Below are positions 16,044 to 55,192 of a stretch of DNA of 64,000 nt, in pieces. This DNA is from Candidatus Saccharimonadota bacterium (GTDB lineage Bacteria > Patescibacteriota > Saccharimonadia > Saccharimonadales > Saccharimonadaceae): assembly GCA_017545595.1 (NCBI GenBank), contig JAFWLO010000011.1:37921-101920 (forward strand). Reading direction: 5' to 3'. A program made the position numbers and the translations under genes. Numbering within the stretch: the stretch's first letter is position 1; every line of letters begins with the position of its first letter. Under the pieces are notes generated by a model. That model was not told where the DNA came from. It did not search any database and saw only the letters and a list, made by a program, of their open reading frames with translations.

Positions 16044-16117
16044 GTTCTAAAAATCTCTCCGGCACCAACAGTTTCTCCACCCTCTTCGACTCAACGCTAT
16101 CTATGAATGTAGGAAGC

Positions 16118-16342
16118 AACCTCACCAGAGCCGATTCCGGTATTCTATCCGAACCGTTTGCGTTTCCTCGTAGTGGCTACTATGGCTGGAGCTCTACTGG
16201 CCTTAACGATAGGAGTTCGGTCGGCAACTACTGGTCTTCGCATAGTCACTCTACCACGTACTCTCACGGCCAGCACTTCTACTCTACGGACTTCGGCCCT
16301 CAGAATAGGTACGGCAAGGGCTACGGCTTTGCAGTCCGTTGT
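16118..16342 (+). repeat. DGR-type variable-region copy VR1 (within short ORF 16103-16432)
   Basis: Encodes ..PFAFPRSGYYGW..GNYWSS..KGYGFAVRC; aligns without gaps to three other copies, with differences at codon positions 1-2. Confidence 0.85.
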
Positions 16343-16379
16343 GTTTCTAAAAATGCAGCGGTTTTCTCCTATGGAAGAA

Positions 16380-16540
16380 AGCTCTTACTCGGGAATATCC
16401 GGAGCTGGCGAGCGGGGAGTTTCCAGCTTTGAGCGACGTCCGCAGGTTACGACCGAGGATAAGGAGGCCGACACCCGCGACGGCGGGCTGGCGGAACTCC
16501 AGTCGCGCAAAATGGAAACGACCGCAAGCGAGCCTCCTAT
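16380..16540 (+). ncRNA. GC-rich multi-hairpin element between VR1 and VR2
   Basis: Stems AGCTGG/CCAGCT, AGGAGGC/GCCTCCT, CCCGC/GCGGG, CTGG/CCAG; ~62% GC with G>C against the local skew. Confidence 0.45.
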
Positions 16541-16611
16541 AAAAGAGAGAATTAGAAAACAAATAAGCACATCAAAACATTCCGAAGAAAATATGGAAGA
16601 AGTCGCAATGA

Positions 16612-17145
16612 GTGCAACCACCCAAAAGAACCATCACCAGAGCCGACTCCAGTATTCTCTCCGAACCGTTTGCACTTCTCCGTAGTGGTTACTATTACTG
16701 GTACTCTACTGGCCTTCGCAATAGGAGTTCGTACGGCGACTACTGGCTTTCACCTACTTTCTCCACCACGAGCTCTCACTACCAGAACTTCGCCTCTACA
16801 GGCTTCAATCCTCGGAATGTGAGTCTCAAGGGCTACGGCTTCGCAGTCCGGTGCGTCGCGTTTTTCTCCTCCTTTTTCAGCTCAATGCTCTCTATGAATG
16901 TAGGAAGTAACTTAACCAGAGCCGACTCCGGTGTTCTCTCCGAACCGTTTGCGTTTGTCCGTAGTGGTAATTATAACTGGCACTCTACTGGCCTTTTCAA
17001 TAGGAGCTCGCGCGGCCACCACTGGTCTTCGCACACTTTCACTACCACGTACTCTCACTACCAGCACTTCGACTCTACGAACTTCAATCCTCCGGGTGAG
17101 GGCAACAGGGGCTTTGGCTTCTCGATTCGTTGTGTCGCTCGGTAG
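16612..17145 (+). CDS. ORF made of two tandem DGR-type variable regions, VR2 (16630-16854) and VR3 (16909-17133); may be silent
   Basis: In-frame fusion of two G.YW..RCV lectin-like C-termini; GTG start, no N-terminal carrier domain. Confidence 0.6.
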   Translation: MQPPKRTITRADSSILSEPFALLRSGYYYWYSTGLRNRSSYGDYWLSPTFSTTSSHYQNFASTGFNPRNVSLKGYGFAVRCVAFFSSFFSSMLSMNVGSNLTRADSGVLSEPFAFVRSGNYNWHSTGLFNRSSRGHHWSSHTFTTTYSHYQHFDSTNFNPPGEGNRGFGFSIRCVAR

Positions 17146-17293
17146 GCAGCTCTTCCTCTTCGCGCCTTCTTCTTAGAAATTCTTCAATAATGCGCCTCGA
17201 TGAGCAATTTCGAGAACAGCTCCCTCGGACCCTCCTCTTGCATTTTCTCTAAAAATACGCTAAAATATACTGAAAATTAATTAAGGAGAAATC

Positions 17294-17647
17294 ATGCTCG
17301 CGATTCGAATGCAGCGTAATGGCCGCGCACACCTCCCAGTGTACCGGATAGTCGTCCAAGAATCCCAGCGTCACCCTCTTTCCGGGCGCGTTGTGGCTGA
17401 GGTCGGCTCATACAACCCCGAAACAAAGCAAACCACCCTCGACAAAGAAAAAATCGAGTTTTATCTCAAGAACGGCGCCCAACCTTCTTCTCGTGTCGCC
17501 TTCGTCCTTGAGAAAAACGGGATAACTCTCCCCGCCTGGTATAAAAAACCTGCCGAGAAGCACAAGTCCGCGAAACACGCCGACAAACTTCGCAAAAACC
17601 AACCAAAGGAAGAAGAACCTTCCGAGGCTGAATCGTCCGCGGAATAA
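17294..17647 (+). CDS. rpsP: 30S ribosomal protein bS16
   Basis: MLAIRMQRNGR..PVYRIVV, VGSYNP, GAQPS; SD AAGGAG. Confidence 0.95.
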   Translation: MLAIRMQRNGRAHLPVYRIVVQESQRHPLSGRVVAEVGSYNPETKQTTLDKEKIEFYLKNGAQPSSRVAFVLEKNGITLPAWYKKPAEKHKSAKHADKLRKNQPKEEEPSEAESSAE

Positions 17648-17660
17648 TTCCAAAAACCAA

Positions 17661-17688
17661 AAAATAGCCCTCTTCCGGGCTATTTTTT
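17661..17688 (+). terminator. Intrinsic terminator
   Basis: AAAATAGCCC/GGGCTATTTT followed by T. Confidence 0.8.
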
Positions 17689-17734
17689 AATAATTGTGCT
17701 ATAATAAAATTACAAACTTAATACGGAGAATAAA

Positions 17735-18115
17735 ATGGCAACCATTGACCAGCAATTTGTCGAGTACATCGTGAAAACCCTCGTGAACAATCCTGATAAA
17801 GTTTCCGTCGAAAGAAAAATCGACGAAAAAGGCGTCCTTCTATCCCTCTCTGTCGATCCAGAAGATGTTGGTCGTGTTATCGGAAAACGCGGCGCGACTG
17901 CCCAGTCCATCCGCACCCTTCTTCGCGCCCTCGGCACGAAAAACGACGCCCGCTACAATCTCAAGATAGTCAACACCGACGATTTGTCTTCCTCTGATTC
18001 TTCCGATTCTTTCTCGGGCGAAGAAACCTCCGATTCTTCCGAAGAATCCGATTCTTCTCGCCTCGCCGAGAAAACCCGCGCCGAAATGGAAGACCTTGAC
18101 GATCTCGACATCTAA
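17735..18115 (+). CDS. khpA: KH-domain RNA-binding protein (KhpA family)
   Basis: DVGRVIGKRG GxxG loop, downstream of rpsP. Confidence 0.88.
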   Translation: MATIDQQFVEYIVKTLVNNPDKVSVERKIDEKGVLLSLSVDPEDVGRVIGKRGATAQSIRTLLRALGTKNDARYNLKIVNTDDLSSSDSSDSFSGEETSDSSEESDSSRLAEKTRAEMEDLDDLDI

Positions 18116-18142
18116 AAATTTCTTTTTAGTCCTATAAAAATC

Positions 18143-18165
18143 GCCCCAGTTTCCTGGGGCTTTTT
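18143..18165. terminator. Intrinsic terminator between convergent genes
   Basis: GCCCCAG/CTGGGGC followed by a T-run. Confidence 0.8.
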
Positions 18166-18168
18166 GTT

Positions 18169-18603
18169 TTAGTTTGTTTCTGGAGTGTAAACTCCGAGGT
18201 CATTCACGATAAGTTTTTCTCTCTGCAAAATCTCAAGCGGAACATCAAATCTCCATGTCTGGATTTCGTAAAGGTGAGGCTTTCCATCCTCAGAGTCAAT
18301 GATTTCTCCGGTTCTAGTATAAGAAAACGACGATTCAACTTTCTCATGAACGTTCAAAAGCTCAACATTTTTATCTAAATCTTTTACATAAAAGTGATAA
18401 AAGAAAAACGTCAGAGAAAACACTATCATTCCCGAAAGAATAATTGCCACTCCCGTCGCATGATCAACATCAATTCCCATTTTTACACTAAAAAACCGAT
18501 AAAAAATCTCTGACAAAATCGCCGAAAGAAGCAAAACAAGAAGAACAATTGTGTTTCCCATCTCTAGAAGTTCCCAAAAGTTAAAAAAATCCGTCCAGTG
18601 CAT
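18169..18603 (-). CDS. Orphan two-TM hypothetical protein
   Basis: 144 aa, SD GAGGGG, two hydrophobic segments. Confidence 0.65.
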   Translation of the reverse strand: MHWTDFFNFWELLEMGNTIVLLVLLLSAILSEIFYRFFSVKMGIDVDHATGVAIILSGMIVFSLTFFFYHFYVKDLDKNVELLNVHEKVESSFSYTRTGEIIDSEDGKPHLYEIQTWRFDVPLEILQREKLIVNDLGVYTPETN

Positions 18604-18692
18604 AAAATTCCCCCTCTCAAGAATACGAAGATACGAAACAAACTGATTTTAAGGTGCAGTAAAATCCCCCGACGTTTAGCCGGGGGTTGATG

Positions 18693-19136
18693 TTAAATTG
18701 ACACTCTCCAAGCGCTAGAATTCGGATGGACCGAAAGAAGGAACGAAAGTTCCGAATCATACAGCGCCGGACCTGCTTTTGACTTTGAAGTGAGGAAAGC
18801 ATCTTCGCTATCCGTTGATGTGTAGCAAGCTACCGGAAGAAGCGGCGTTTCTGCCATCCCAGGACGCTTTACCTTTATCCCCTCCTTATCGTAATCCATG
18901 AACGGATTAAACCAATAACTCTGATCAACCCAGACATGAAGTCCCGGCTTGATATTTCTCGCCCGAGCGTAACCGAAAAGCAAAACTTCCTGTTTTAAGG
19001 GAAGATTCATCTGAGAAAGAAAATTCAGAATATGCTTCGGCCCGACCCCAGTCAGGTAAATATCTGCCTCCTCCGTTCCGCAAAATGTTTTCTTAGCCAG
19101 TTCAAAGTCTTTCTGTGATGGTGCCAAAATAATCAT
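18693..19136 (-). CDS. Hypothetical protein, possibly a degenerate nucleoside-phosphorylase-like fold
   Basis: IYLTGVG, LLFGYAR, ACYTSTD, YDSEL resemble PNP/MTAN-like motifs; own promoter TTGCAA-N17-TATAAT and hairpin at ~18661-18688. Confidence 0.55.
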   Translation of the reverse strand: MIILAPSQKDFELAKKTFCGTEEADIYLTGVGPKHILNFLSQMNLPLKQEVLLFGYARARNIKPGLHVWVDQSYWFNPFMDYDKEGIKVKRPGMAETPLLPVACYTSTDSEDAFLTSKSKAGPALYDSELSFLLSVHPNSSAWRVSI

Positions 19137-19225
19137 TTTTTACCCCCTTATGAGATTATAAAGAACATGTCACACCTATATTATACCAAATTTCTCCAAA
19201 TTTTGCAAGCCCCATAACAAAAACC

Positions 19226-19412
19226 TTGAATTTTTATCCTTTCTATGCTAAAATGAGCAGAAGAAGCAGATTTGCTGATTTTTTGCTCGCTACTCGGGAC
19301 CGGCGACCCCCGTAGCAAAATCAGCAGTAATCTTCGGCGCTATTTAATCGTGCCTGTGGCCTCGGCCTCTAGACTCGAAAGGTCATACAAACTCTAACCA
19401 AAAAGGAATTTC
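19226..19412 (+). promoter_or_regulatory. rpoB promoter and ~155-nt structured 5-prime leader
   Basis: TTGAAT..TGCTAAAAT; long hairpin TGCTGATTTT/AAAATCAGCA enclosing GCTAC/GTAGC and GGG/CCC. Confidence 0.6.
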
Positions 19413-22400
19413 GTGAACAAAACAACGACGACCGGTCGCAAGTTCTTCACTGAAGGCGACCAAGCCCTCCCAATTCCTGATTTGATTGCCCACCAAAAAG
19501 ACAGCTGGGAAGATTTTGTCAAATCAGGCCTTCGCGAAGTTTTTAACGAGCTCAATCCGATTGAGGATTACACTCACCAAAAACTCGCGCTCCGCTTTAA
19601 AGATTATTATTTCAAAGAGCCTTCCGAGTCGGAAAGGGAAGCGAAATACAATTTAACAACATACGACGCCCCTCTCCATGTCATCGTCGAGCTAGAAAAC
19701 AAAGTTTCCGGCGAGAAGAAAGAACAGGATATCTTCTTTGGCGATTATCCCTGGATGACCGACCGTGCAACCTTCATCATCAACGGAACTGAGCGCGTTA
19801 TTGTCTCTCAGCTCATTCGCTCCGCAGGCGTCTTTTTCACGGCCGACCAAATCGGCGAACGTCGTTACTACGGCGCAAAAGTCATCCCTGGTCGTGGCGC
19901 TTGGCTCGAATTCGAAACCGCCCCTAACGGCGCAATCTACGTCAAAATCGACCGTCGCCGAAAAATCCCCGTAACAACCCTTCTTCGCGCTCTTGGCGTT
20001 GCGAAAAATTCCGAAATCAAAGAAAAATTCGCAGGTCTCGACGAAGGCGACGTCTCCTATATCGACGCCACCCTCGAGAAAGACACGACCCGTGGCCAGT
20101 CCGAAGCTCTCATCGAAGTTTATCGCAGACTTCGCCCGGGCGACCTCGCGACCGTCGAAAACGCGAAGGACATGATCGAACGCACTTTCTTCGACTACAA
20201 GCGTTACGATTATTCCCGTGTTGGGCGTTTCAAGATTAACCAACGCCTCGGTTTCGACACCCCGAACGATTCCGAACATCGCACCCTCCAGATGAAGGAC
20301 CTTATCGCGATTATCGCCGAAATCATCCGCCTAAACAACACTCAAGACGCCCCAGACGACATCGATTCTCTCGCAAACCGTCGCATAAAGCTCGTTGGCG
20401 AGCTTGTTCAACGTCAATTCCGCCTCGGGATGCTTCGCCTTCAGCGCAACATTCTCGACAGAATGTCAATGGCTAACCTTGAAGAAGTCACTCCTTCTCA
20501 GCTTCTAAATTCTCGCCCTGTCGTCGCCGCCGTCAAGGAATTCTTTGCGTCCTCTCAGCTTTCTCAGCTTATGGACGAAACCAACCCCTTCGCCGAACTC
20601 TCCCACAAGCGCCGTCTGTCTTCGATGGGCCCCGGCGGGCTAACCCGCGAACGCGCCGGCTTTGACGTCCGCGATGCCCACCCGACCCACTACGGTCGCA
20701 TCTGTACCGTCGAAACCCCTGAAGGTGGAAACGTCGGTCTCGTTCTTAACCTCGCGACCTATGCCCGCATAAACGACTATGGCTTCATCGAAGCCCCCTA
20801 CCGCGTCGTTAAAAACGGCAAAGTCACGGACGAAGTTGTTTACGTTGACGCCTCTCTAGAAAACGACATGATTATCGCTGACGCCTCCGTAAAACTCGAC
20901 AAAGACGGAAAGTTTGTCGACACCTACGTTTCTGCTCGCGTCCACGGAACTCCGGCTCAAGTCGAATCTTCTCGCGTCACTCATATCGACGCCGCTCACA
21001 AAGAAATTCTCGGAGTTTCCGCCTCGCTTATTCCTTTCGTCGAGAAAAACCGCGTTGACCGCTCCCTCATGGCCTGCGCCATGCAGAAACAAGCTGTTCC
21101 TCTTCTTAAAACCGACGCTCCCGTCGTCGGAACCGGAATTGAAGGTGAAGTCGCCAAAAACCTCTCCCAAATCGTCTTTGCTGAAGGCGACGGAGAAGTC
21201 AAAAAGGCCGACGGCGTCTCTGTTATCGTCAAATACAAAGACAATTCCGAAAAAGAATACAAACTCGTCCACTTCGAGAAAAACAACGACGACCGCTGTT
21301 ATAACCAACGCACAAAGGTCGTTCGTGGTCAAAAAGTCAAAAAAGGCGACGTCCTTATTGAAGGCGCTTCCATAGAAGATGGCGAACTCGCTCTCGGAAA
21401 AGATCTCCTCGTCGCGTTCATGCCTTGGCGCGGTTACAACATGGATGACGCTATCGTCATCTCTTCCCGCCTCGTAAAAGACGACACTCTGACCTCAATC
21501 AACATCAAAGATTACGACGTTGAGGTTCGCGAAACAAAGCTCGGCCCCGAACAAATCACTCGCGACATTCCAAACGTCAGCGAACATTCCCTTCGTCATC
21601 TCGGCGAAGACGGAATTGTCACCGTCGGTAGCGAAGTTTCCACCGGAGACATTCTCGTCGGGAAAATCACCCCGAAAGGCGAACAAGAGCTTTCTTCCGA
21701 GGAACGTCTCCTCCGAGCCATCTTCGGTGAAAAAGCTAAAGATGTCCGCGACACTTCTGTTCGCATGAACGGCGGAACCGGAAAAGTCATCGGCGTCCGC
21801 ACTTATACTCGCGAACAAGGTCACGACCTCAAAGCTGGCGTCCTCATGCAAATCAAAATCTACGTCGCCGAAATGAGAAAAATCGACGTCGGCGATAAGC
21901 TCGCAGGTCGCCACGGAAACAAAGGTGTCGTTTCTCGCATTCTTCCTGTCGAAGATATGCCCTTCATGGAAGACGGAACTCCAATCGACATCCTTCTTTC
22001 TCCAATGGGCGTCCCAAGCCGCATGAACCTCGGCCAGCTTTTCGAAACCCACCTCGGTTTTGCCGCTAAAAACCTCGGTTACAAAGTCGCCACCCCGTCC
22101 TTCAATGGTGTCCCAGGAGAAGTCATCTCTGAGGAGCTTAAAAAGGCCGGTTTCGACGAAGACGGTCGTGTCCAACTTTACGATGGCCTAACCGGCGAAC
22201 CCTTCAACGAAAGAACTTCCGTCGGTATCATGCACATGATAAAACTCCACCACATGGTCGAAGATAAAATCCACGCCCGTTCAACCGGTCCATACACTAT
22301 GGTCACCCAGCAACCTCTCGGCGGAAAGGCCCAGAACGGTGGTCAGCGTTTCGGAGAAATGGAGGTTTGGGCGCTCGAAGCATACGGTGCCGCCACCACA

Positions 22401-22784
22401 CTCCAAGAAATGTTGACGATAAAATCCGATGATGTTTATGGCCGTGCGAAAGCCTACGAAGCCATCATTAAAAACGAGCCAATCGAAGGCCCGAAGCTTC
22501 CTGAAGGCTTCAACGTCCTCGTCAAAGAGCTCCAAGGTCTCGGTCTTAAAGTCGATCTTCTTGACCATGGAGAAATCAACGATGCTTCCGACGTCATTGA
22601 AGAAACTTCCCGCGAAATAGAAAAAGAACAGGACGACCAGCTCATTTACGCACAACACAAAGAAGAAACCGAACCGACTATAACCGACCTCGATTCGGAA
22701 GAAACTAAAGAAATCTTAGAAGACGAAGGAATTCAAATAACAGAGGGCGATGACGCAACCACCGACCTCGGAGAGGAGATCTAA
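19413..22784 (+). CDS. rpoB: RNA polymerase beta subunit
   Basis: SSQLSQ, HKRRLS.GPGGL, GDKLAGRHGNKG, GGQRFGEMEVWALEAYGA; GTG start. Confidence 0.99.
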   Translation: MNKTTTTGRKFFTEGDQALPIPDLIAHQKDSWEDFVKSGLREVFNELNPIEDYTHQKLALRFKDYYFKEPSESEREAKYNLTTYDAPLHVIVELENKVSGEKKEQDIFFGDYPWMTDRATFIINGTERVIVSQLIRSAGVFFTADQIGERRYYGAKVIPGRGAWLEFETAPNGAIYVKIDRRRKIPVTTLLRALGVAKNSEIKEKFAGLDEGDVSYIDATLEKDTTRGQSEALIEVYRRLRPGDLATVENAKDMIERTFFDYKRYDYSRVGRFKINQRLGFDTPNDSEHRTLQMKDLIAIIAEIIRLNNTQDAPDDIDSLANRRIKLVGELVQRQFRLGMLRLQRNILDRMSMANLEEVTPSQLLNSRPVVAAVKEFFASSQLSQLMDETNPFAELSHKRRLSSMGPGGLTRERAGFDVRDAHPTHYGRICTVETPEGGNVGLVLNLATYARINDYGFIEAPYRVVKNGKVTDEVVYVDASLENDMIIADASVKLDKDGKFVDTYVSARVHGTPAQVESSRVTHIDAAHKEILGVSASLIPFVEKNRVDRSLMACAMQKQAVPLLKTDAPVVGTGIEGEVAKNLSQIVFAEGDGEVKKADGVSVIVKYKDNSEKEYKLVHFEKNNDDRCYNQRTKVVRGQKVKKGDVLIEGASIEDGELALGKDLLVAFMPWRGYNMDDAIVISSRLVKDDTLTSINIKDYDVEVRETKLGPEQITRDIPNVSEHSLRHLGEDGIVTVGSEVSTGDILVGKITPKGEQELSSEERLLRAIFGEKAKDVRDTSVRMNGGTGKVIGVRTYTREQGHDLKAGVLMQIKIYVAEMRKIDVGDKLAGRHGNKGVVSRILPVEDMPFMEDGTPIDILLSPMGVPSRMNLGQLFETHLGFAAKNLGYKVATPSFNGVPGEVISEELKKAGFDEDGRVQLYDGLTGEPFNERTSVGIMHMIKLHHMVEDKIHARSTGPYTMVTQQPLGGKAQNGGQRFGEMEVWALEAYGAATTLQEMLTIKSDDVYGRAKAYEAIIKNEPIEGPKLPEGFNVLVKELQGLGLKVDLLDHGEINDASDVIEETSREIEKEQDDQLIYAQHKEETEPTITDLDSEETKEILEDEGIQITEGDDATTDLGEEI

Positions 22785-22785
22785 T

Positions 22786-25700
22786 ATGGCCTGGAATTAC
22801 AACAACTACATCAGTGCCAACGATTTTGATTCGATTCGTCTCAGCGTAGCTTCCGCAGAAGACATTCTAAACTGGAGCTACGGGCAGGTTACAAAACCCG
22901 AGACAATCAACTATCGAACTCAAAAACCTGAGCGCGACGGTCTTTTCTGTGAAAAGATTTTCGGCCCAGTAAAAGACATTAACCCTCACGACGCAAAACT
23001 CAAAGGCATTCGTTCTCGCGAAGCTGCCGTCGATAAAGAAGGGAATCTTGTCACAAAGTCCATCACACGCCGCGAGCGCATGGGTCACATCGCCCTCGCC
23101 GCTCCCGTCACTCATATCTGGTTTATGCGCGGAACGCCATCCGCTCTTGCAACATTGCTTGATTTAACCGTTAAAAACATCGAGAAAGTTGTTTATTTCG
23201 CGACCTACTTAATCACCGAAGCGAAAGACGAAGAAGTCGAAAAAACTCTTCACGACCTTGAAGCTCAGACCGAAGCCGCGAGAAACGCAATAAAAATCCG
23301 CTACGAGAACGAAGCCTCCGTTGAGGGTGCTGACGTTCGCGCTCTCGCCGAAGCTCAAACAAAAGAGCTAGAAGAGCTCGAAACCGATTTTGTTCGCCGA
23401 AAGTCCTATCTCGAAGGCTTCCACAAAGGCGCTATCCTTTCTGAGCACGATTATCGCGAGCTCCCCGAAGAATACGAAGATTTAATCGAAGTCGGAATGG
23501 GCGCAACCGCCATCAAAAAACTTCTCGATGAAATCGATCTTGACCTTCTTATCAACGAAATCAAAGAACAATCCGAAACCGCCAAGGGTCAAAAGGCGAA
23601 AAAACTCATCAAACGCCTAAAAACCCTCGAAGGAATGCAATCCGCCGGCATAAAGCCAAGCGACCTCGTTCTGACGGTTATTCCAGTCATTCCTCCGGAT
23701 CTTCGTCCAATGATTTCTCTCCCAGGCGGACGTTTTGCAACCTCCGATTTGAACGACCTTTATCGCCGTGTCATAAACCGCAATAATCGTCTGAAAAAGC
23801 TTCTCGATCTTAACGCTCCAGAAGTTATCTGCCGAAACGAAATGCGTATGCTCCAAGAGGCCGTCGATGCCCTCATCGACAACTCCGCATCTCACGGTTC
23901 TCGCTCTGCCGCTTCCCAAAACGGCCGAAGAAAGCTCAAATCTCTCTCCGACCTCTTGAAAGGAAAGCAAGGTCGCTTCCGCCAGAACCTCCTCGGAAAA
24001 CGCGTCGACTATTCCGGCCGCTCCGTCATCGTTGTTGGTCCTGAGCTAAAACTCAACGAATGTGGCCTCCCGAAGCAAATGGCGCTCGAACTCTTTAAGC
24101 CTTTCGTAATTTCTTGGCTCATCCGCAATGAACACGCAAACAACATCCGCGCCGCCGCTCGCATGATCGAAGCAGGAGAAAACGTCGTTTGGGATGCTCT
24201 CGACGAAGTTATTCAAGGTCGTTATGTCCTCTTGAACCGCGCTCCGTCCCTCCACCGTCTCTCTGTTCAGGCTTTCCAGCCAAAACTCATCAACGGAAAA
24301 GCCATCCAGCTTCACCCGCTCGTCGCATCCGGTTTCAACGCCGACTACGACGGCGACCAAATGGCTGTCCACCTTCCGCTATCCGACGCCGCCCAAGCCG
24401 AAGCCCGCGAACTCATGTCCGCAACTAAAAACCTTCTTAAACCTGCCGACGGTGCCCCTGTTCTCGCGATTTATCAGGATGTCGTTCTCGGAATTTACTA
24501 CCTAACTTACGACAAACCCGGGACCGACACCGAAAAAGCCCATGCCTTCTCTTCGATTTACGAAGCAGAAATGGCCTACGACAAGGGTCTAATCGCGCTC
24601 CAAACCCCAATTCGTGTCTTCGCGAAGAAAGAAATCAGAAACACGACTCTCGGACGTGTCATCTTTAACGAAATCCTCCCGAAGGATTATCCGTTCGACA
24701 ACTCCGTCCAGACTTCGAAACAACTTAAAAAAGTCATGGCGAACATTTTCGACCAATACGGCCCCGAAGTAACCGTAAAAACCGCCGACGCCGTCAAAAA
24801 CCTCGCCTTCGAGTATGAAACTATCGCTTCCGTCTCGACAGCGAAAGACGATTACCCGACTTATCCAGAAATCGCCGACTTTATCGCCGAAGGAGACGCG
24901 AAGACCGCTTTGATTCAAGACCAATTCAACCAAGGTCTCGTAACCGAAGAGGAAAGAAAGAACCTTACGATCGCAAACTGGCGAGACATCGACAAGAAAA
25001 TCTCCGACTTCCTTAAAGAAAAACTCTCCACGATGGACACAGACATCGCCGTCATGGTCAACTCCGGCGCTCGTGGTTCCGTTTCGAACATCAAACTCGC
25101 TTCCGCAGAAATCGGTATCATGGTCGATATCAACAACAACGAAATCGAGCTCCCTGTTAAATCTTCTTACAAAGAAGGCCTAAACACTCTCGAATCCTTC
25201 ATTGCGACCCGAGGCGCTCGCCAAGGTCAGGTTTCGACCGCTCTCCGTACTGCCGACTCTGGTTACCTCACCCGTCGCCTCGTTGACGTCGCTCAAGATG
25301 TCTTCACGACCGATGAAGAAGCTTACGATCCAGGCTTTACAGTCTATAAATCAGAAACCGAACAAACTGGCATCGCTTTCTCTGTCCGCATTGCTGGACG
25401 CTACACCGCCGAAGCTATCCCAGGCTATCTTGAAGCCGACGAGCTCATCACAAACGACCTCGCTGCTCAAATCGAAGCCGACGATAAGATAGAAAGTGTA
25501 AAAATCCAATCCGTTCTCTCGACGACCGCCGTTAATGGCGTCCCGAGAAAAGCTTACGGTGTCGATATGTCCACCCGCGAACTTGTTGAAGCAAACCAGC
25601 CTGTCGGAGTTATCGCCGCACAATCCCTCGGCGAACCGGGCACCCAACTCACTCTCGATACAAAACACGGTTCTGGTGTTGCTGGCTCCGGCGCTATCGC

Positions 25701-26613: not shown

Positions 26614-26628
26614 AAAGCGCCAAAAAAC

Positions 26629-26666
26629 AAAAAGTGTCCCCTAAACTCTATAGGGGACACTTTTTT
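26629..26666 (+). terminator. rpoBC terminator
   Basis: AAAAGTGTCCCCT/AGGGGACACTTTT followed by T. Confidence 0.9.
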
Positions 26667-26762
26667 GTTCTCAATACCTAATTTATTGACTTTTTATCCC
26701 TCTTGTGCTATAATAAGAGAATAACGTTTGTTAAGTTCTTACACATACAGGAGGGGAAGAAA

Positions 26763-27086: not shown

Positions 27087-27129
27087 CTAACCCCGCCCCG
27101 TTCTTACGGGGCTTTTTCCAACTTACCCC

Positions 27130-27892: not shown

Positions 27893-27893
27893 C

Positions 27894-28502: not shown

Positions 28503-28504
28503 TC

Positions 28505-31080: not shown

Positions 31081-31081
31081 T

Positions 31082-41011: not shown

Positions 41012-41055
41012 CACTGTTTCTTAGCTACCCCCTCCTGTCCAATCATCCTCAAACA

Positions 41056-47167: not shown

Positions 47168-47244
47168 ACTATTTTAAGTTTAGTTCTTATGCTAGAAAAA
47201 TGCAAGCTCTTGAAATCTTAAAAACTTATATTATAATTTCAAAC

Positions 47245-47754
47245 ATGAAACTCATCGTCGGATTCGGAAATCCAGGGTCAGAATACAATTTTACTCGCCA
47301 CAATCTTGGTTTCTTAACTCTAGATTTTTATTTTAAACTAAAAAACTTAGAATGGGAACCTCACGAAAAATTCAACGCAATCTGGAAAAAAGCCGACGAT
47401 AGAATCTTTATAAAGCCTCAAACATTCTACAACAACATCGGAACCTCCGTTTCTAGTTTCAAAAACTTTTATAAAATAGATAATTCCGACATTCTCATTA
47501 TCTGTGACGATTTCAATCTAAAATTTGGCTCCAGTCGTTTCCGTGAACGCGGTTCCGCTGGCGGAAACAATGGCCTAAAATCCATTATAGAAAATCTAAA
47601 AACAGAAAACTTCCCCCGTCTCCGCCTTGGAACGGGGAACGACGAACTCCGTAAAAAAATCGGTGACGTCGATTTTGTTCTCTCTAAATTCACCGAATCA
47701 GAAAAATCCGCTCTCCCCGCGTTCCTTAAAGACGTCTGCGAAAATATGCTATAA
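47245..47754 (+). CDS. pth: Peptidyl-tRNA hydrolase (start moved to 47245)
   Basis: MKLIVGFGNPG..TRHNLG, KPQTFYN, GGNNGLKSI. Confidence 0.95.
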   Translation: MKLIVGFGNPGSEYNFTRHNLGFLTLDFYFKLKNLEWEPHEKFNAIWKKADDRIFIKPQTFYNNIGTSVSSFKNFYKIDNSDILIICDDFNLKFGSSRFRERGSAGGNNGLKSIIENLKTENFPRLRLGTGNDELRKKIGDVDFVLSKFTESEKSALPAFLKDVCENML

Positions 47755-47761
47755 TACCGTT

Positions 47762-50122
47762 ATGTCAAAAAATCTAGTTATCGTCGAGTCTCCTGCTAAG
47801 GCAAAAACCATCGAAAAATACCTCGGAAAGGATTTCCATGTCCTCTCCTCCGTAGGTCACATCCGAAAAGACACAAAAGTTGACGTAAAAAATGATTTTG
47901 CAGTTACTTACGAAATTGACCCAGGCCACAAAAAGGTCGTTTCCGAACTTAAAAAAGCGACAAAATCCGCCGAAACCGTCTGGCTCGCGACAGATGAAGA
48001 CCGCGAAGGAGAATCTATTTCCTGGCATCTTCTCGAAGTTCTTGGTCTCCCTTCTTCTACCCACCGCATCACTTTCCACGAAATCACTAAACCCGCCCTC
48101 GAGGCCGCCATAAAATCCCCCCGAACTGTTGACATGGCCATGGTCGCCTCTCAGCAAGCTCGCCAAACTCTCGATATGCTCGTCGGCTTTGATCTTTCTG
48201 GAGTTGTTCGCCGAAAAGTCCCAGGCGCAATCTCCGCCGGGCGTGTTCAGTCTCCCGCTCTTCGCCTTATCGTAGAAAAGGAAAGAGAAATAAAAAACTT
48301 CGGAGAAAAGTTCAATTTTAAAGTCACAGGAGATTTCGTCTCCTCCGACAATACAAATTTCCTAGGTTCTCTAGAAAAAAACGCCCCCTCGACCCTTGAA
48401 GAAGCCAAAGATCTCTTAAATTCCCTTAAAAATACTTCTTATTCCGTCTCGGCTGTCGATCGCTCCGAAGCTGACAAACCTAATCCAGTCCCTTTCGCGA
48501 CCGCCGCTCTTCAAATCGAAGCGAATGCTCGTCTAGGTTTTTCCTCTTCAACGACTATGCGCGCTGCCCAAGGCCTCTACCAAGCCGGTCACATCACTTA
48601 TCACAGGACTGACTCTCTTAATCTTTCTAAACAAGCCCTCGCCTCTATCGCCGACTATATAAAAACCAACTTCGGAGAAAACTACTTAAAAGTCCGCCAT
48701 TTCAAAACCAAATCCGCCGGCGCCCAAGAGGCCCACGAAGCCATCCGTCCGACCCACATAGAAAACGAAGTTGCCGGCTCAAACGACTTTGAACGAAAAC
48801 TTTACCATCTCATCCGCTCCCGCACGCTTGCAACTCAAATGGCGAACGCCCGCGTAGCAAAAACAACTATTTTTCTAACCCCCGAATCTTCAAAAACTCA
48901 TATTTTTGTCGCCCGTGGAGAAGTTGTCATATTTGACGGTTTCCTAAAAGTCTATGGAAAATCAAAAGATTTAGAACTACCCGATCTCTCCGTCGGAGAT
49001 AAGGTTCTTGCAACCTCCGTCACTGCTCGTCAAAATTTCTCTAAACCTCCAGCAAGATACACTGAAGGCTCCCTCGTTAAGAAACTCGAAGAACTCGGAA
49101 TAGGACGTCCTTCGACTTACGCTTCCATCATGACCGCCATTCAAGCCAGGAATTACGTCAAAAAAGGCGAAGGCGAAGGCGTAAAACGTGACGTTATCGA
49201 GCTAAAACTCGAAAACGGCGTAGTTTCCGAAGGAGTTGTTTCAGAAAAAACCGGTGCGACGAAAGGAAAACTCGTTCCGACCCCAGTCGGCGAACTTGTT
49301 TCTGACTTTCTGACAGACAACTTCGACCAAATAGTCGATTATGGATTCACTGCCGACGTTGAACAAAAGCTCGACCTAATAGCAGAGAAAAAACTCGACA
49401 AAGTCAAAATGTTACGCGACTTTTACACGCCGTTCTCCGAATTAGTCGATCATTCTTCATTTCTCGAGCGCTATAATTCTGCGACAGAACTTGGGACTGA
49501 CCCCAAAACCGGCAAAAAAATCTACGCAAAAATCGGAAAAAACGGCGGCTTTATTCAGCTCGGAGAAAATGAAAAAGAATCCGGAGAAAAACCCCGCTTT
49601 GCTCCACTTCCGAAGGGAAAAACCGTTAAAGATGTTACTCTCGAAGAAGCCCTTAAACAACTTTCTCTCCCCTCTCTTCCTCGTTCTCTAGGAACAGCCA
49701 AAGACGGAACCGAACTTATTGCTGCCGCTGGCCCCTTCGGCCCCTATCTTAAAGCTGGAAAATACAACATCTCCCTCGGAAAAGAAGACCCCTATAAAGT
49801 TTCTTTTGAGACCGCTAATTCTCTTTATCAAGAAAAATTAAAATCCGTCATAAAAGATTTTGGAAACGGAATTATGATTTTGAACGGCGCTTACGGCCCC
49901 TACATAAAAGGTCTCGGTCGTCGCAACAATCTTAAAATACCCAAAGACATCGACGCTAAAAAAATCACCAAAAAGAAAGCCGAAGAAATGCTCATGGAAA
50001 AATTCGGCACCCGCGCTCTTCCTGGAGCTGACGCTCTCAAAAAACGCACTTCAAAAGTCAAAAAAACCACAAAAAAAGCCGCCCCAAAGAAAAAACCCGC
50101 GAAAAAAACCACAAAAAGCTAA
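47762..50122 (+). CDS. topA: DNA topoisomerase I with zinc-free C-terminal repeats and a Lys-rich tail (start moved to 47762)
   Basis: LVIVESPAKAKTI, ATDEDREGE, SAGRVQS, ITYHRTD, GPFGPY repeats. Confidence 0.97.
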   Translation: MSKNLVIVESPAKAKTIEKYLGKDFHVLSSVGHIRKDTKVDVKNDFAVTYEIDPGHKKVVSELKKATKSAETVWLATDEDREGESISWHLLEVLGLPSSTHRITFHEITKPALEAAIKSPRTVDMAMVASQQARQTLDMLVGFDLSGVVRRKVPGAISAGRVQSPALRLIVEKEREIKNFGEKFNFKVTGDFVSSDNTNFLGSLEKNAPSTLEEAKDLLNSLKNTSYSVSAVDRSEADKPNPVPFATAALQIEANARLGFSSSTTMRAAQGLYQAGHITYHRTDSLNLSKQALASIADYIKTNFGENYLKVRHFKTKSAGAQEAHEAIRPTHIENEVAGSNDFERKLYHLIRSRTLATQMANARVAKTTIFLTPESSKTHIFVARGEVVIFDGFLKVYGKSKDLELPDLSVGDKVLATSVTARQNFSKPPARYTEGSLVKKLEELGIGRPSTYASIMTAIQARNYVKKGEGEGVKRDVIELKLENGVVSEGVVSEKTGATKGKLVPTPVGELVSDFLTDNFDQIVDYGFTADVEQKLDLIAEKKLDKVKMLRDFYTPFSELVDHSSFLERYNSATELGTDPKTGKKIYAKIGKNGGFIQLGENEKESGEKPRFAPLPKGKTVKDVTLEEALKQLSLPSLPRSLGTAKDGTELIAAAGPFGPYLKAGKYNISLGKEDPYKVSFETANSLYQEKLKSVIKDFGNGIMILNGAYGPYIKGLGRRNNLKIPKDIDAKKITKKKAEEMLMEKFGTRALPGADALKKRTSKVKKTTKKAAPKKKPAKKTTKS

Positions 50123-50334
50123 TATTTCATATAACTTATTTCTAAAAAGTAAACATATTCATAATGTTCTTGCATAATTTGTAAAGTTTGTGATACAATA
50201 ATTTTCAGGATAAATCCATCGAAGAGCACCTTATTTAGAAACAAAAATCACAAATTTTACCAGTTGACATTATGCCTATTTTATGATATTATAATAAACA
50301 AGTTTCAATAATAACCGATGAATGAGGAAAACTA

Positions 50335-51375
50335 ATGGAACAAAACGCGGACATTATTGCGCAAGCAATCAATGGTAGCCTCAAAATAATCGAACAAGAT
50401 AGGGAACGACAAATCGTCGAAAAACGTTTTGGTCTCGACGGCCAAAAGGAAACCCTAGAACAAATCGGAGAAACCCTCTCCGTCACCCGCGAACGCGTTC
50501 GTCAGCTCGAAAAAGTCATCCTCGTTCGTCTTCGTATAACCGCTAAAGCTAACAACATTCCCGAACTCGCCTCGGCTGAAAAAATCATCATCCGCAACCT
50601 TGCCGAAATCGGTCGTGTTGCGAAAGTGAATATCCTCGCTGATAAAATCTACGGTCGAAAAGCCTCGAACAAGGAAAAAGCCGCCCTTGTTTTTCTCGGC
50701 GACATCTCCCCCTCTCTTACTATCGTTTCCGAAAACGACAAATACAACAACGCCATAGCTATCGCCGACGTTGGCGACGAAAAACAAATTCGTCAAAAAA
50801 TCGACGAAATCGTTTCCATGATAAAATCCAACAAAGCCCCCCTCTCTCTTGAACAACTCGACGAGCGTCTCAATTACGAACACCCCTCTCAGATTTCCGC
50901 CATCGCCTCCGTTTCTAAACTCCTCGCAACTTTGAACGGTCTCTGGGGTCTCTCGAAATGGCCGACCGTAAACCCTAAAAACATTCGTGACAAAATCTAT
51001 GTCATCTTAGAAAACAAGAAGGAACCGATGCACTTCAACGACATCTCCACCGCCATCGCCGAGTCCAACTTCAAACGAAAGAACGTCACAACCCAAGCTA
51101 TTCATAACGAACTTATAAAAGATCCCCGTTTCGTTCTCATCGGCCGAGGAATCTACGCCCTCGACTCTTGGGGCTACAAGAAGGGAACTGTCTCCGAAAT
51201 CATCACGAACGTCCTTAAGTCTGCCGGCCGTCCACTCTCGCGCGAAGAAATTGTCGCCGAAGTCCTTAAATCAAGAAAAGTAAAAGAAACAACTATTCTT
51301 TTAAATCTCCAAAACAAAAAATATTTCGAACGCGTCGACAAAAATTCCTACACTCTAAGAACCCCCTCAAAATAA
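50335..51375 (+). CDS. Sigma70 region-4-like HTH fused to winged-helix/HARE-HTH-like domains
   Basis: RFGLDGQKETLEQIGETLSVTRERVRQLE; QAIHNELIKDPRFVLIGRGIYAL. Confidence 0.75.
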   Translation: MEQNADIIAQAINGSLKIIEQDRERQIVEKRFGLDGQKETLEQIGETLSVTRERVRQLEKVILVRLRITAKANNIPELASAEKIIIRNLAEIGRVAKVNILADKIYGRKASNKEKAALVFLGDISPSLTIVSENDKYNNAIAIADVGDEKQIRQKIDEIVSMIKSNKAPLSLEQLDERLNYEHPSQISAIASVSKLLATLNGLWGLSKWPTVNPKNIRDKIYVILENKKEPMHFNDISTAIAESNFKRKNVTTQAIHNELIKDPRFVLIGRGIYALDSWGYKKGTVSEIITNVLKSAGRPLSREEIVAEVLKSRKVKETTILLNLQNKKYFERVDKNSYTLRTPSK

Positions 51376-51421
51376 CCATAATCTTTCGACATTTTTTAGA
51401 AAATATGCTAAAATATTCTAA

Positions 51422-54400
51422 ATGTTAGCAACGATTATTCACTTCATTTTAACCCCTATTGTTTGGATTCCTCTCGTCGGTCTTTTTGCATTTTTAACTT
51501 ACCAGAACTACAAACAAGCAAATCGTCTCAAAGTCCTTAATGTCGATTCCGTCCTCCTTATGCTCGAAATCCCCCGAACAAACGACAAGAAAGAACTAGC
51601 TGCCGAACAACTCTTCGCCTCTCTTCACGGCATTCTCCGCGACAAAAACGAACTCAGAAATTCCGGAGGCGTCCAAGAACACCTTTCTTTCGAAATTGTC
51701 TCGACCGGCGGCCAAATCCGTTTCTATGTTTGGGTTCCTAAAATTCTTCAATCATTCGTCGAAGGCCAAATTTATTCCCAATATCCGACCGTCCAGATTT
51801 TCAAATGCGACGAAGATTACGTCGATAACCGTTCGAAACACTCTATCATCTATTCTTCTGAACTCGCCCTAACCGAAGATGACGCCCTCCCAATAAAAAC
51901 CTTCGATTCTTTTGAAGTTGACCCTCTTGCCGGGATTACCGGGACCTTAGCGAAGCTCGACAGCGACCTAAACGAAGAGCTCTGGATTCAAATCCTTGCT
52001 CGCCCAATCGCCGACGATTGGCACAAGTCCACAACCGACACCTGGATAAACCGCATAAAAACCGGTCGTTCCGGTGGCGGTTTTTTAGGCTTCGACGCAA
52101 GTTACATTTCCGAAATCTTCGCCGCCCTCTGGACTCCTCCTACGGGCGGAACTGGCGACTCCGGTAGTGGCCCGACAATCAGCGAACGCGATCAAACCCG
52201 AATCTCTAAAGCTGAAGAAAAAGCCACAAAGCTCGGTTATCAAGTCAAAATCCGCCTTGCTTACCTCGGAAACGACGAAGTTAACGCAAAACTAAATATG
52301 CAGGCCCTCGTCGGAACATTTAAACAGTTCAATTCTACAAATTTGAATGGGTTTAAAATGCTCGGAAGCACATTTTCCCCCGAAAGTCTTGACGCTTACA
52401 AGTTGAGGCAGTTTACAGACAACGGTTTTATTCTGAACATCAGCGAGCTCGCCAGCGTCTATCACCTCCCCCATACCAGCGTTGAAACTCCAAACATCGT
52501 ATGGGCCAACTCAAAAACCGCCGAACCCCCTTCTAAACTCCCCCTCATAACCGGAAACCCCGCAAACGACGAGAATATCTCTGCCTTCGGTCTCACAAAT
52601 TTCCGTGGCATAAACCATCAATTCGGCCTTCTTCGTCGCGACCGCAGTCGTCACGTCTATATTATCGGCCAAACCGGCGCCGGAAAATCCGGTCTCCTCG
52701 AACTCTTCGCGCTCTCTGATATCTTTTATAACCAAGGATATTGCATCATTGACCCTCATGGCGACTTCGCCATCAACAACTTAAAGTTCATCCCAGAGAG
52801 TCGTATTCGCGACGTAGTCTATTTTAACCCCGCCGACACCTCCCACCCTGTCGCCTTCAATCCTCTCGAGCTCTCCGACCCTGCGAGAAAGCCCAATGTT
52901 TCCTCCGAGGTTATCGGCGTCCTTAAACGTATGTTTGGTGATTCCTGGGGTCCACGCCTCGAACATATTTTAAGATACACTCTTTTAGCTCTTTTGGACC
53001 GCCCAGAAACTACCCTTCTTGACATCTCAAGAATGTTAACTGACAAGGAGTTTAGAAAAGAAACGCTAAATTATTGTAAAGATGTTACCGTTCTCCAATT
53101 CTGGAAACAAGAATTCGGAACCTGGAGCGAAAAGCAAGTTACCGAGTCTATAGCCCCAGTTCTTAACAAAGTCGGCGCCTTCACGGCGAACCCCATTATT
53201 CGCAATATTATCGGTCAGCCAAAATCTTCCTTCGACGTTAGAAAAATCATGGACGAGGGAAAAATTCTCGTCGTTAACCTTTCTAAGGGATTGATTGGCG
53301 AGGATAACGCCGGGATTCTTGGGTCGTTCCTAGTGACGAAGGTCCAACTTGCCGCCATGTCCCGCTCCGACATTCCTGACGTTCGCGACCGTCGTCCGTT
53401 TTATCTGTATGTTGACGAATTTCAGAACTTCGCGACCGATTCCTTCGCGACAATTCTCTCCGAAGCTAGAAAATATGGCCTTAACCTCACTGTTGCGAAC
53501 CAATACACCGCCCAAATGACCGATAGTGTCCGCGATGCTGTCTTCGGTAATGTCGGAACAACTATCTCTTTCCGTATTTCCGCCGACGATGCTCCCGTCC
53601 TTGTCAAACAATTCGAACCAACCTTCGACCAAAACGACCTCATCCAAATGAACAACCGCAACTTCATCATCAGCATGATTATAAACGGAGAAAAGGTCCC
53701 CGCTTTCTCCGCTACGACTCTTTCTCTTCCGACTTCCCCTCACGACAATCTCGAAAAAATCATAGAAAGTAGCCGAGAACAATATTCCCGCCCTCGAAGC
53801 GAAGTCGAGGAGGAAATTCGCGAAACTATCGAAGCTAGCGAAAAATACAAAAAAGAACTCTCCGATTCCGGTCGGCTCGCTCAAGACGATTCAGGTGATA
53901 AAAAATCCGAACCGAAGTTCGTTTTTAAGTCCGCCGACATTTCCTCCTCAAAATCCTACCGTCCCGAAGTAACCCGAACAAAAACCGAACGAAAGTCCTC
54001 GTCGCGCCCACTCACTCCTCAAGAAGAGTTCAAAAGACTCAAAATCTCTCCGAGTGTTGCCGAAGAAAAAGCTCCTAAACTCGGCCTAAAAGACCTAGGA
54101 AAGCTTCTAGAAGAGAAAAAATCCGAAGAAAAGGTAGGGAACGACAAGAGGGAAGAACAACCCTCTAAAAAGTCCAAACGAGCCCATAAAAAGGCTCATG
54201 TAACCCCCGAATCGTCCAAAGCGCCCAAACACCAAGCTCAAGCGGAAAATCGCTCAGAAGCCCCAAATTTTGCGCCAGAACGCAATATTTCTCATCCAAA
54301 CCCCGCGAAAGTCGCCACTCCAAAGATTACAACCTTCCATTCTGCCTCTAAAAAATCCAGTAATTCCCCAGAAAACCCGAATTCTATCGCTAAACCTTCC

Positions 54401-54484
54401 AAAAACAACGATTCCCTGAAAAAACCCAAAACCCCCAACGCCCCCAACACCTCGACCGAAGGTTATATTGTCATAAATCACTAG
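51422..54484 (+). CDS. HerA/FtsK-superfamily ATPase (type IV coupling protein/TraD-like, DUF87) with an N-terminal TM
   Basis: Walker A GQTGAGKS, IDPHGD, Walker B LYVDEFQNF, SEARKYG, ANQY; disordered basic C-terminus. Confidence 0.85.
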   Translation: MLATIIHFILTPIVWIPLVGLFAFLTYQNYKQANRLKVLNVDSVLLMLEIPRTNDKKELAAEQLFASLHGILRDKNELRNSGGVQEHLSFEIVSTGGQIRFYVWVPKILQSFVEGQIYSQYPTVQIFKCDEDYVDNRSKHSIIYSSELALTEDDALPIKTFDSFEVDPLAGITGTLAKLDSDLNEELWIQILARPIADDWHKSTTDTWINRIKTGRSGGGFLGFDASYISEIFAALWTPPTGGTGDSGSGPTISERDQTRISKAEEKATKLGYQVKIRLAYLGNDEVNAKLNMQALVGTFKQFNSTNLNGFKMLGSTFSPESLDAYKLRQFTDNGFILNISELASVYHLPHTSVETPNIVWANSKTAEPPSKLPLITGNPANDENISAFGLTNFRGINHQFGLLRRDRSRHVYIIGQTGAGKSGLLELFALSDIFYNQGYCIIDPHGDFAINNLKFIPESRIRDVVYFNPADTSHPVAFNPLELSDPARKPNVSSEVIGVLKRMFGDSWGPRLEHILRYTLLALLDRPETTLLDISRMLTDKEFRKETLNYCKDVTVLQFWKQEFGTWSEKQVTESIAPVLNKVGAFTANPIIRNIIGQPKSSFDVRKIMDEGKILVVNLSKGLIGEDNAGILGSFLVTKVQLAAMSRSDIPDVRDRRPFYLYVDEFQNFATDSFATILSEARKYGLNLTVANQYTAQMTDSVRDAVFGNVGTTISFRISADDAPVLVKQFEPTFDQNDLIQMNNRNFIISMIINGEKVPAFSATTLSLPTSPHDNLEKIIESSREQYSRPRSEVEEEIRETIEASEKYKKELSDSGRLAQDDSGDKKSEPKFVFKSADISSSKSYRPEVTRTKTERKSSSRPLTPQEEFKRLKISPSVAEEKAPKLGLKDLGKLLEEKKSEEKVGNDKREEQPSKKSKRAHKKAHVTPESSKAPKHQAQAENRSEAPNFAPERNISHPNPAKVATPKITTFHSASKKSSNSPENPNSIAKPSKNNDSLKKPKTPNAPNTSTEGYIVINH

Positions 54485-54565
54485 AATATATTATCATTAT
54501 TCATTAAACTCAAGCTTGACCCCTGTTCTACCTCTGTTAAAATAGAAGGGAATTAAGGAGTAAAA

Positions 54566-54694
54566 ATGCCCATATCTTATAAATCCGGTTCCGAGCTTAT
54601 AAAAACCTCAATAGATAATCTCTCTGAAAAACTCGACCGTCAAAACGACCTCCTAGAAAAGCTCATAAAAGCCGTCGCAAAAGATAAAAAATAA
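54566..54694 (+). CDS. Putative 42-aa coiled-coil small protein (below the ORF track cutoff)
   Basis: SD AAGGAG, MPISYKSGSELIKTSIDNLSEKLDRQNDLLEKLIKAVAKDKK; upstream TTGACC..TAAAAT. Confidence 0.55.
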   Translation: MPISYKSGSELIKTSIDNLSEKLDRQNDLLEKLIKAVAKDKK

Positions 54695-54967
54695 CTTATA
54701 AAGACTACCGGATAAAAATCCAAAGATCCTCATAGAATCAGAAACAAACAACGTTTGAAGTCCCATCATTTTGGTCGCTTTCCGACGATTCTCCCATCCA
54801 CATTTTCCGACAGTTTTAATGTCGCACAATAACTATTTTGAGACATTAACCCTAGTATAAAAAGCCGATACCACAATCATCTAAAACCTCGCTAAAAAGC
54901 CAACACAAGCATAATATCGTCCTAGCCCCCCCCACTGTCTTTAGCCTAATCCAAATACTATAAAGCC

Positions 54968-55192
54968 ACAACGGACTGCGAAGCCGTAGCCCTTGCCGTC
55001 CCCACCCTGAGGAACGAAGTCCGTAGAGTAGAAGTACTTGAGGTGAGAGTACGTGGTAGCGTAAGTATGCGAAGACCAGTAGTAGCCGCGCGAACCTCTA
55101 GTGCCAAGGCCAGTAGAGTGCCAGATATAGAGGCCACTACGAGGAAACGCAAACGGTTCGGATAGAATACTGGAATCGGCTCTGGTTAAGTT
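54968..55192 (-). repeat. DGR-type variable-region copy VR4: start-less orphan cassette
   Basis: Reverse complement reads NLTRADSSILSEPFAFPRSGLYIW..GYYWSS..KGYGFAVRC; in-frame TAG 7 codons upstream, no start codon. Confidence 0.85.

Follow-up and report, generated by a model that had tools for sequence, protein, structure and literature searches.

Headless, frame-preserved copies of a retroelement-diversified variable region in a Saccharibacteria genome: possible donors for gene conversion

Why does a bacterium with one of the smallest genomes keep bare copies of the variable region of a diversity-generating retroelement (DGR)? The question is raised by a 64,000-nucleotide stretch of contig JAFWLO010000011.1 (assembly GCA_017545595.1, Candidatus Saccharimonadota), called the window below. 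The window corresponds to positions 37921-101920 of this contig, designated C8 here; C2, C4, C5, C7, C9, C11 and C14 are further contigs of the same genome (G000), and positions without a prefix are those of the window. Four copies of a 222-225-nt unit (74-75 codons), gap-free and stop-free, are found in it, at the places where an initial annotation had reported variable regions (VRs) detached from their target genes. With bounds set by a cassette hidden Markov model (HMM), these are VR1 (16124-16345, 74 codons), VR2 (16636-16857) and VR3 (16915-17136) on the plus strand, and VR4 (54968-55186) on the minus strand. None of them is the template, and none follows a long carrier gene: the open frames around VR1, VR2, VR3 and VR4 measure only 145, 177, 177 and 90 codons. 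Both points agree with the annotation. In the Fib_succ_major (FISUMP) profile, 187 positions long, the match to the unit is limited to 125-186, the C-terminal third of the domain; scores of this profile on the cassettes lie below the curated cut-offs, and the presumed C-type-lectin-like fold of the variable domain is deduced from FISUMP matches only. The reading developed below, to which we give an even chance, is that the repeats are silent, 5'-truncated copies of the end (~74 codons) of a DGR target gene, archived and retained as donors for gene conversion.

The A-rich template that had been deduced from the four copies exists, almost letter for letter, on another contig (C2:66880-67070, minus strand). 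This template repeat (TR) has A at every hypervariable position, contains 17 Asn codons and encodes PFAFPRSGNYNWNSTGLNNRSSNGNYWSSHTYSTTNSHNQNFNSTNFNPQNGNNKGNGFAVRCVAR. As had been claimed, variation among the copies lies mainly in the first and second bases of ~17 codons, which read AAC or AAT in the template. The mean mismatch frequency with the TR, calculated over 36 copies, is 0.42 at the 52 A sites and 0.106 at the 145 non-A sites. The window copies have 19 A-site and 11 non-A mismatches (VR1), 20 and 18 (VR2), 20 and 17 (VR3) and 25 and 11 (VR4), amounting to 19-25 of the 52 A sites and 11-18 of the 145 non-A sites in each (Fisher p 1e-4 to 1.5e-9); per site, a difference from the TR is about six times commoner at A than at non-A. 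Three copies elsewhere in the genome deviate from the TR almost exclusively at A: C5:532 (23 A-site and 0 non-A mismatches), C2:68147, located beside argS (24 and 2), and C2:53203 (19 and 2). The latter two are open reading frames (ORFs) of 83 aa initiating with ATG. The cassettes are of DGR origin, having once received adenine-mutagenised template information. The division of the window copies into two framework subfamilies held for one pair: at non-A sites, VR1 and VR4 resemble each other and the template closely (8, 7 and 5 differences of 138), whereas VR2 and VR3 differ from each other at 21 of 138 such sites and form no subfamily. The suggestion that the cassettes arose as ectopically integrated DGR products was not borne out. 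A stretch of 33 nt lying 5' of the template homology is common to all copies, and its adenines are unmutated, which speaks against integration of cDNA at new sites. The predicted fold of the presumed TR transcript showed no significant structure (z -1.2), and the template leaders of relatives are too divergent for alignment.

The reverse transcriptase (RT) suspected elsewhere in the genome lies 4.5 kb past the window end (C8:106492-107616, minus strand). It is a DGR-type enzyme of 374 aa with IGNLSSQ and YVDD motifs, matches RVT_1 with an E value of 3.5e-11, and is 50-57% identical to RTs of relatives that adjoin Asn-rich templates. Its best match among solved structures is 8ub7_A (E 1.9e-24), the 328-aa RT of entries 8ub7-8ube, which we take to be the enzyme of Bordetella phage BPP-1. 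The gene was found by tblastn with the relatives' RTs; a whole-genome Pfam RVT_1 scan missed it and gave only a retron type VI RT on C9. An ORF of 272 aa overlaps the RT start from upstream and is conserved in relatives (RT and accessory gene together, C8:106492-108431); it has no match in Pfam, NCBIfam or the Protein Data Bank (PDB), Avd included. The usual order in relatives is a long target (470-700 aa), the accessory gene, the RT and then the template on the opposite strand. No template adjoins the RT on C8. RT homologues place the genome (745 kb in 15 contigs, 98.8% complete) in Candidatus Saccharibacteria, genus Candidatus Nanosyncoccus, with relatives from ruminant and rodent guts.

A complete target gene, which the annotation had proposed to look for, can also be traced. 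Contig C4 starts inside a 935-codon ORF, identified by tblastn with the upstream part of the domain, with an ATG and, at the N-terminus, a hydrophobic stretch resembling a signal. This ORF ends abruptly at '...CPLGWQLPRNSG', just ahead of the J segment (the short piece that precedes many cassettes) and the cassette itself. The final 129 nt recur at 100% identity at C5:814-942, and 103 of these also at C2:53040-53142, repeats that account for the contig break. In another sample, the same species has a 1031-aa version ending in '...TNSFSTLFDSTLSMNVGSGFTRADSGILSEPFAFPRSGLYHW...GYGFAVRCVAR', whose VR, judged by eye, differs from the template at A positions only; homologues in other species measure 1030-1160 aa. 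From its sequence, the 1031-aa product appears to be a signal-peptide-bearing surface protein whose tail is the VR. The VR occupies the 3' end of this gene; the window cassettes have no carrier gene.

Cassettes of the same family are scattered over the whole genome. BLAST and the cassette HMM together gave ~38 template-like and ~17 more diverged cassettes (about 55), representing ~1.6% of the 745 kb; nearly all, the ~17 diverged ones included, are full length and stop-free, in frames of 79-270 codons. Most have no start codon and are preceded by a stop 2-10 codons upstream (nine codons for VR4). Their 5' truncation is nested: homology to the target extends ~108 codons ahead of the cassette on C5, 73 codons at C2:53203 and ~30-40 codons at the argS-adjacent VR and VR1, while many copies retain only the J segment and many others not even this. 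In the window, VR1 retains ~20 codons more of the domain, within a remnant of the target gene (16004-16123, plus strand) that comprises 'MFKNPRVWLP' (cf. CPLGWQLP), a frameshifting indel and the J segment SGTNSFSTLFDSTLSMNVGSNL; tblastn with the head of the target domain matches C8:53978-54043 (16058-16123). VR2 has no J segment. A degenerate J segment (FFSSMLSMNVGSNL, 16864-16914, plus strand) joins VR2 to VR3 in a single frame, the two sharing one 177-codon ORF. Only VR3 is followed by a 3' element resembling the initiation of mutagenic homing (IMH) sequence (TGTGTCGCTCGGTAGGCAGCTCTTCCTCTTCGCGCCTTCTTCT, 17131-17173, plus strand). It is of the VR type, with one mismatch to active VRs, and is without the C-rich stretch that comes next in those; VR1, VR2 and VR4 have no 3' element.

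About 25 cassettes are gathered in ~10 kb of C7, alternating in orientation and separated by spacers of 20-90 nt. A unit of ~520 nt recurs in this array (C7:16866-26751). In it a template-like cassette faces, head to head, a strongly diverged one, and it is invariably the diverged partner to which the J segment is attached. The template-like partner stays near the TR while the J-bearing one drifts, suggesting that retrohoming updated only one of the two. At the level of the genus, matching cassettes were found in 56 of 61 sampled Nanosyncoccus genomes, with a maximum of 59 in one genome; stop-free frames of 63-250 codons contain nearly all of them. The architecture recurs in dozens of metagenome-assembled genomes (MAGs) from different studies. 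In Alistipes sp. and Alistipes muris, whose RTs are 43-44% identical to the present one, 5-9 tandem FISUMP-type short-frame cassettes lie just upstream of the RT gene, indicating that multi-cassette arrays occur with related DGRs in Bacteroidota too.

Whether the cassettes are still being changed was judged from same-strain contigs of four to five other metagenome samples, found by looking up the exact proteins of neighbouring genes. Two samples match the 8.35-kb region around VR1-VR3 except for one single-nucleotide polymorphism (SNP) at 16501; a third sample shows, in addition, a G to A change at 16980 that converts TGG to TGA in VR3. Three samples have VR4 without any change. For the 10.5-kb C7 array, whose orientation is constant, one sample matches exactly and another has a single SNP. 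The argS-adjacent VR, on the other hand, exists in three forms across the samples, all with identical flanks. Variant 1 is that of the present genome. In variant 2, the 5' third is unchanged and the 3' two-thirds are rewritten at A positions only, with a template-type 3' flank, a pattern that marks it as a fresh retrohoming event. The DGR is active at the argS VR, and the window cassettes are frozen in the sampled population. A second diversified VR, C5:532-753, likewise carries the 3' flank of the template (CGTGGCTCGCTAGCAGGGCTTCCTCTTTGCCCTTCGC) and not that of the VRs, implying that the 3' crossover of homing can fall further downstream, in the shared C-rich stretch TTCTGTCCCCCTCCCCCAG.

Variant 3 (sample SAMN15830011, contig L181) is of a different kind. 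It begins with the argS-type flank and a shared 24-nt stretch and continues with 112 nt that are 100% identical to a silent cassette of the C7 array (C7:19411). The identity runs to the contig end and includes seven non-A differences from the template, which could not have been created by retrohoming. The window cassettes of SAMN15830011 are unchanged. Variant 3 is one candidate transfer from a silent cassette to an active VR, the direction being deduced only from the constancy of the donor in other samples. The comparison of strains that had been suggested at the outset returned static window cassettes, a static C7 array and a silent tract in the argS VR, the exchange being represented by this one contig only. 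Where the contigs of other samples differ in structure, repeats of 100-185 nt are crossed, and such variants may stem from the assembler. For instance, in contig L178 (SAMN15830012) the phosphoketolase genes that border the C7 array in the present genome are connected with the argS VR locus by a ~185-nt repeat, of which other copies lie at C2:67305-67486 and C2:44507-44662; this could be a real rearrangement or a choice made by the assembler.

Signs of exchange were also found between the cassettes themselves. VR3 and C7:25501 are near-identical over their 3' 74 nt, with 24 of 25 A-site states alike, whereas 24 of the 112 positions upstream are different; C2:43012 and C11:851 form a near-identical pair. 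In a relative, G069, with its three templates and five long targets, ~35 headless cassettes were counted, 13 of which differ from a template almost only at A (1-4 non-A differences). One diversified cassette of G069 is present, 100% identical, at five loci, in four of which the flanks are unrelated on both sides; at a sixth locus only the 5' half is in common and the 3' half is rewritten at template-A positions. Other cassette pairs of G069 are alike in the 3' half only. Sharing of a 5' half fits partial retrohoming anchored at the 3' end; sharing of a 3' half, and identical copies in different flanks, need DNA recombination.

The interpretation of the cassettes as gene-conversion donors can be formulated as follows. 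The DGR RT and its separate TR would rewrite a few live VRs, the argS-adjacent VR among them. The window cassettes would have stopped being retrohoming targets, most of them presumably without the full 3' recognition element; lack of a complete element is the probable reason why they are frozen, VR3 having an IMH-like part and no C-rich stretch. The cassettes would persist through their use as donors. Homologous recombination via a conserved 45-nt block at the 5' side and a 25-nt block at the 3' side may copy cassette stretches into the active VR loci, so that combinatorial reuse of stored variants would be added to fresh mutagenesis. A broader proposal, which we advance tentatively and rate below an even chance, is that of a two-tier system: the DGR would make new binding-site variants in a few live VRs, and selected ones would be parked as dozens of silent, frame-preserved cassettes, stretches of which gene conversion would later copy back into the expressed surface-protein gene, constituting a heritable memory in the 0.75-Mb genome of an epibiont. 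The donor library imagined in the annotation gains support, short of proof, from static cassettes, open frames, mosaics and one recombinant contig.

The most serious competitor, less likely in our judgment, is the other option named in the annotation, that the cassettes are decaying relics: left behind by duplication and deletion affecting the 3' end of the target gene, diversified while they were still recognised, now functionless and heading for loss. The nested truncation points, the 11-18 non-A mismatches of each window copy and the constancy of the cassettes between samples are all in keeping with such a history. The state of the open frames is not. Non-A changes in 35 template-like cassettes have generated 0 stop codons, against 15.9 +/- 3.6 expected, and include an excess of synonymous changes (179 versus 118 expected). 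As differences shared between cassettes could mirror past template evolution, the test was repeated on 70 cassette-private mutations. These comprise 25 synonymous and 45 non-synonymous changes and 0 stops, the expectations being 21.4, 43.8 and 4.75, respectively (P = 0.006 for stops). Just two indels separate the cassettes, both in frame, and the ~17 diverged cassettes show no stops either (see above). The open frames of the cassettes are maintained. Protection of the frames and not of the residues fits donor cassettes or variable domains better than junk. It also counts against relics that tens of cassettes are kept in most of the 61 Nanosyncoccus genomes, although these are among the smallest bacterial genomes, that identical cassettes occur in unrelated flanks, and that mosaics and one recombinant VR exist.

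A number of observations weigh against the donor interpretation in turn. Use as donors is deduced from one 2.2-kb metagenome scaffold that ends inside the cassette and may be an assembler chimera or the product of a reciprocal crossover, and the apparent donor is a C7 cassette, none of those in the window. No dedicated recombination machinery was identified. The samples come from one study and are ~1 SNP per 8 kb apart, so that 'static' holds for a short time only. Private mutations show no synonymous excess and a near-neutral synonymous/non-synonymous ratio, as relics would, and some of the shared non-A differences could reflect past evolution of the template and not selection on the cassettes. 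The TGG to TGA change at 16980 is what decay would produce; frame protection, as VR3 of that sample demonstrates, is not absolute. Finally, a perfect sigma-70 consensus promoter (TTGACA-17 nt-TATAAT, 15906-15934, plus strand) follows the terminator of the upstream gene ~190 nt 5' of VR1, and as a consequence 'silent' is not established for VR1.

This promoter leads to a further alternative, an improbable one, in which cassettes endowed with a J segment and an ATG (MNVGSNL...RCVAR, 83 aa), VR1 and VR3 for example, are translated as small stand-alone variable proteins. The nearly A-only VR loci C2:68147 and C2:53203 are themselves 83-aa ATG ORFs, VR1 combines the perfect promoter with a terminator-like hairpin, an extended -10 element lies ~115 nt 5' of the argS VR, and the maintenance of open frames would be explained. 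However, the ATG is not preceded by a ribosome-binding site, the piece corresponds to no more of the domain than the stretch of 62 profile positions given above (125-186 of 187), and a start codon is missing altogether from most cassettes, VR2 and VR4 among them. AlphaFold returned a pLDDT of 37 for the longest such ORF (161 aa, on C5; 22-row alignment), and a profile search against the PDB gave no match.

We consider it more improbable still that the window cassettes are live remote targets, rewritten in trans by the RT and TR on rare occasions. VR3 does have its IMH-like element of the VR type with a single mismatch, and in G069 the 13 nearly A-only headless cassettes include one that resembles a partial 3' rewrite of another. 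Yet each window cassette has its 11-18 non-A mismatches distributed along its length, and a full homing event would erase them; VR1, VR2 and VR4 have no 3' element; and VR1-VR4 were not rewritten between samples while the argS VR acquired three variants, SAMN15830011 showing both behaviours at once. A shufflon-like inversion behind a constant gene head, or arrays that are population variants wrongly concatenated in assembly, would be favoured by the alternating orientation, inverted J segments, 20-90-nt spacers and recurrent head-to-head unit of the C7 array and by the break of several contigs at cassettes. These ideas deserve hardly any credit, given that no recombinase gene adjoins any array (the one tyrosine and four serine recombinase matches of the genome are all elsewhere), that the J segment is always on the diverged partner of the unit, that the 10.5-kb array is identical and in the same orientation in independent assemblies of other samples, and that the same architecture occurs in dozens of MAGs from different studies.

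Placed among known systems, the elements described here share with the BPP-1 DGR (mtd VR, avd, TR, brt) an SQ-motif RT, an Asn-codon-rich template, a VR at the 3' end of a ligand-binding protein and adenine-specific differences, including one partial rewrite anchored at the 3' end. They differ from it in having the template on another contig than the RT, an accessory gene of 272 aa without an Avd match, VRs that can bear a template-type 3' flank (the C5 VR and argS VR variant 2) and >50 extra cassettes without a carrier gene. Cellular DGRs with several or remote targets, such as those of Legionella, Treponema denticola and Thiohalocapsa PB-PSB1, are alike in that one RT and template can serve several VRs in trans, that paralogous targets arise by duplication and that some VRs are active and others inactive. 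Their VRs, however, are part of complete genes and number from a few to 15, whereas here ~38 plus ~17 bare 74-codon cassettes, mostly frozen, are found. In the literature consulted, one to four VRs are recorded per DGR element and 15 targets are called exceptional (PMC3521204; bioRxiv 10.1101/2023.09.22.558884; PMC11661182): DiGReF lists up to four VRs per element (PMC3521204), and Thiohalocapsa PB-PSB1 has 15 targets (bioRxiv 10.1101/2023.09.22.558884). The Saccharibacteria genome paper of McLean et al. does not mention retroelements.

The closest parallels to the proposed donor role are silent-cassette systems: vlsE/vls of Borrelia (PMC11499132), pilE/pilS of Neisseria, MgPar of Mycoplasma genitalium and the msp2 pseudogenes of Anaplasma (PMC2789410). 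Here as there, the copies are promoter-less, 5'-truncated and in frame, without a start, VR1 with its upstream promoter being the exception. Conserved flanks surround a variable core, arrays coexist with dispersed copies, mosaics occur, frames stay open while amino-acid change is tolerated, and the cassettes are static while the expressed site varies. The present case differs in that the stored diversity is made by a retroelement, that there are several recipient loci and not one expression site, and that evidence of unidirectional segmental conversion comes from one contig only. The R64 pilV/Rci shufflon is a poorer model, there being no recombinase near the arrays here and no change of orientation between samples.

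Other features of the region and the genome deserve mention. The spacer between VR1 and VR2 contains, outside the cassettes, a G+C-rich structured element (16401-16540, plus strand) of ~140 nt that can form one long closed hairpin-like fold (dG -76 kcal/mol, z -4.8); an A-rich tail comes after it. A copy 98.5% identical to it is located directly 5' of valS (C2:61966-62165, minus strand); weaker copies are on C14, C5 and C2, several of them adjoining cassettes. Neither this element nor the cassette region has an Rfam match. A strong promoter-like block (TTGAC.TTTT.TCCCTCTTGTGCTATAATA) is present in two copies in the window (13066-13123 and 26686-26743), 5' of housekeeping operons. Paralogous AAA_14/DUF4143 ATPase genes (PADLOC candidate PDC-S01) were found at C2:65242-66528, C5:1067-2341, C7:22952-24226 and C2:71380-72000; genes of this group directly adjoin the template repeat, the C5 VR and one C7 cassette, and the ORF of the C7 cassette overlaps the end of its ATPase gene by 16 nt. 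The C9 retron mentioned above (C9:15431-16790) is a type VI pair, HTH_VI and RT_VI by PADLOC, that adjoins a Dam-like methylase, a restriction-enzyme-like ORF and a second methylase, forming a defence island unrelated to the DGR.

DGRs are understood as a one-step mutagenesis of few complete genes. The organism described here, whose genome is among the smallest of bacteria, devotes ~1.6% of its DNA to about 55 VR copies that are headless and frame-preserved, a trait found in most of the genus. Such cassettes fragment metagenome assemblies and escape DGR finders that search around the RT, and the number of DGR targets in the phylum is therefore probably underestimated. If the cassettes are donors, retroelement hypermutation and cassette gene conversion, so far studied separately, would be coupled, and the DGR would gain a memory. 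Saccharibacteria live attached to other bacteria; for such an epibiont, immune evasion is not an evident driver. The finding also bears on how these bacteria vary the surface proteins that they probably use to bind their hosts.

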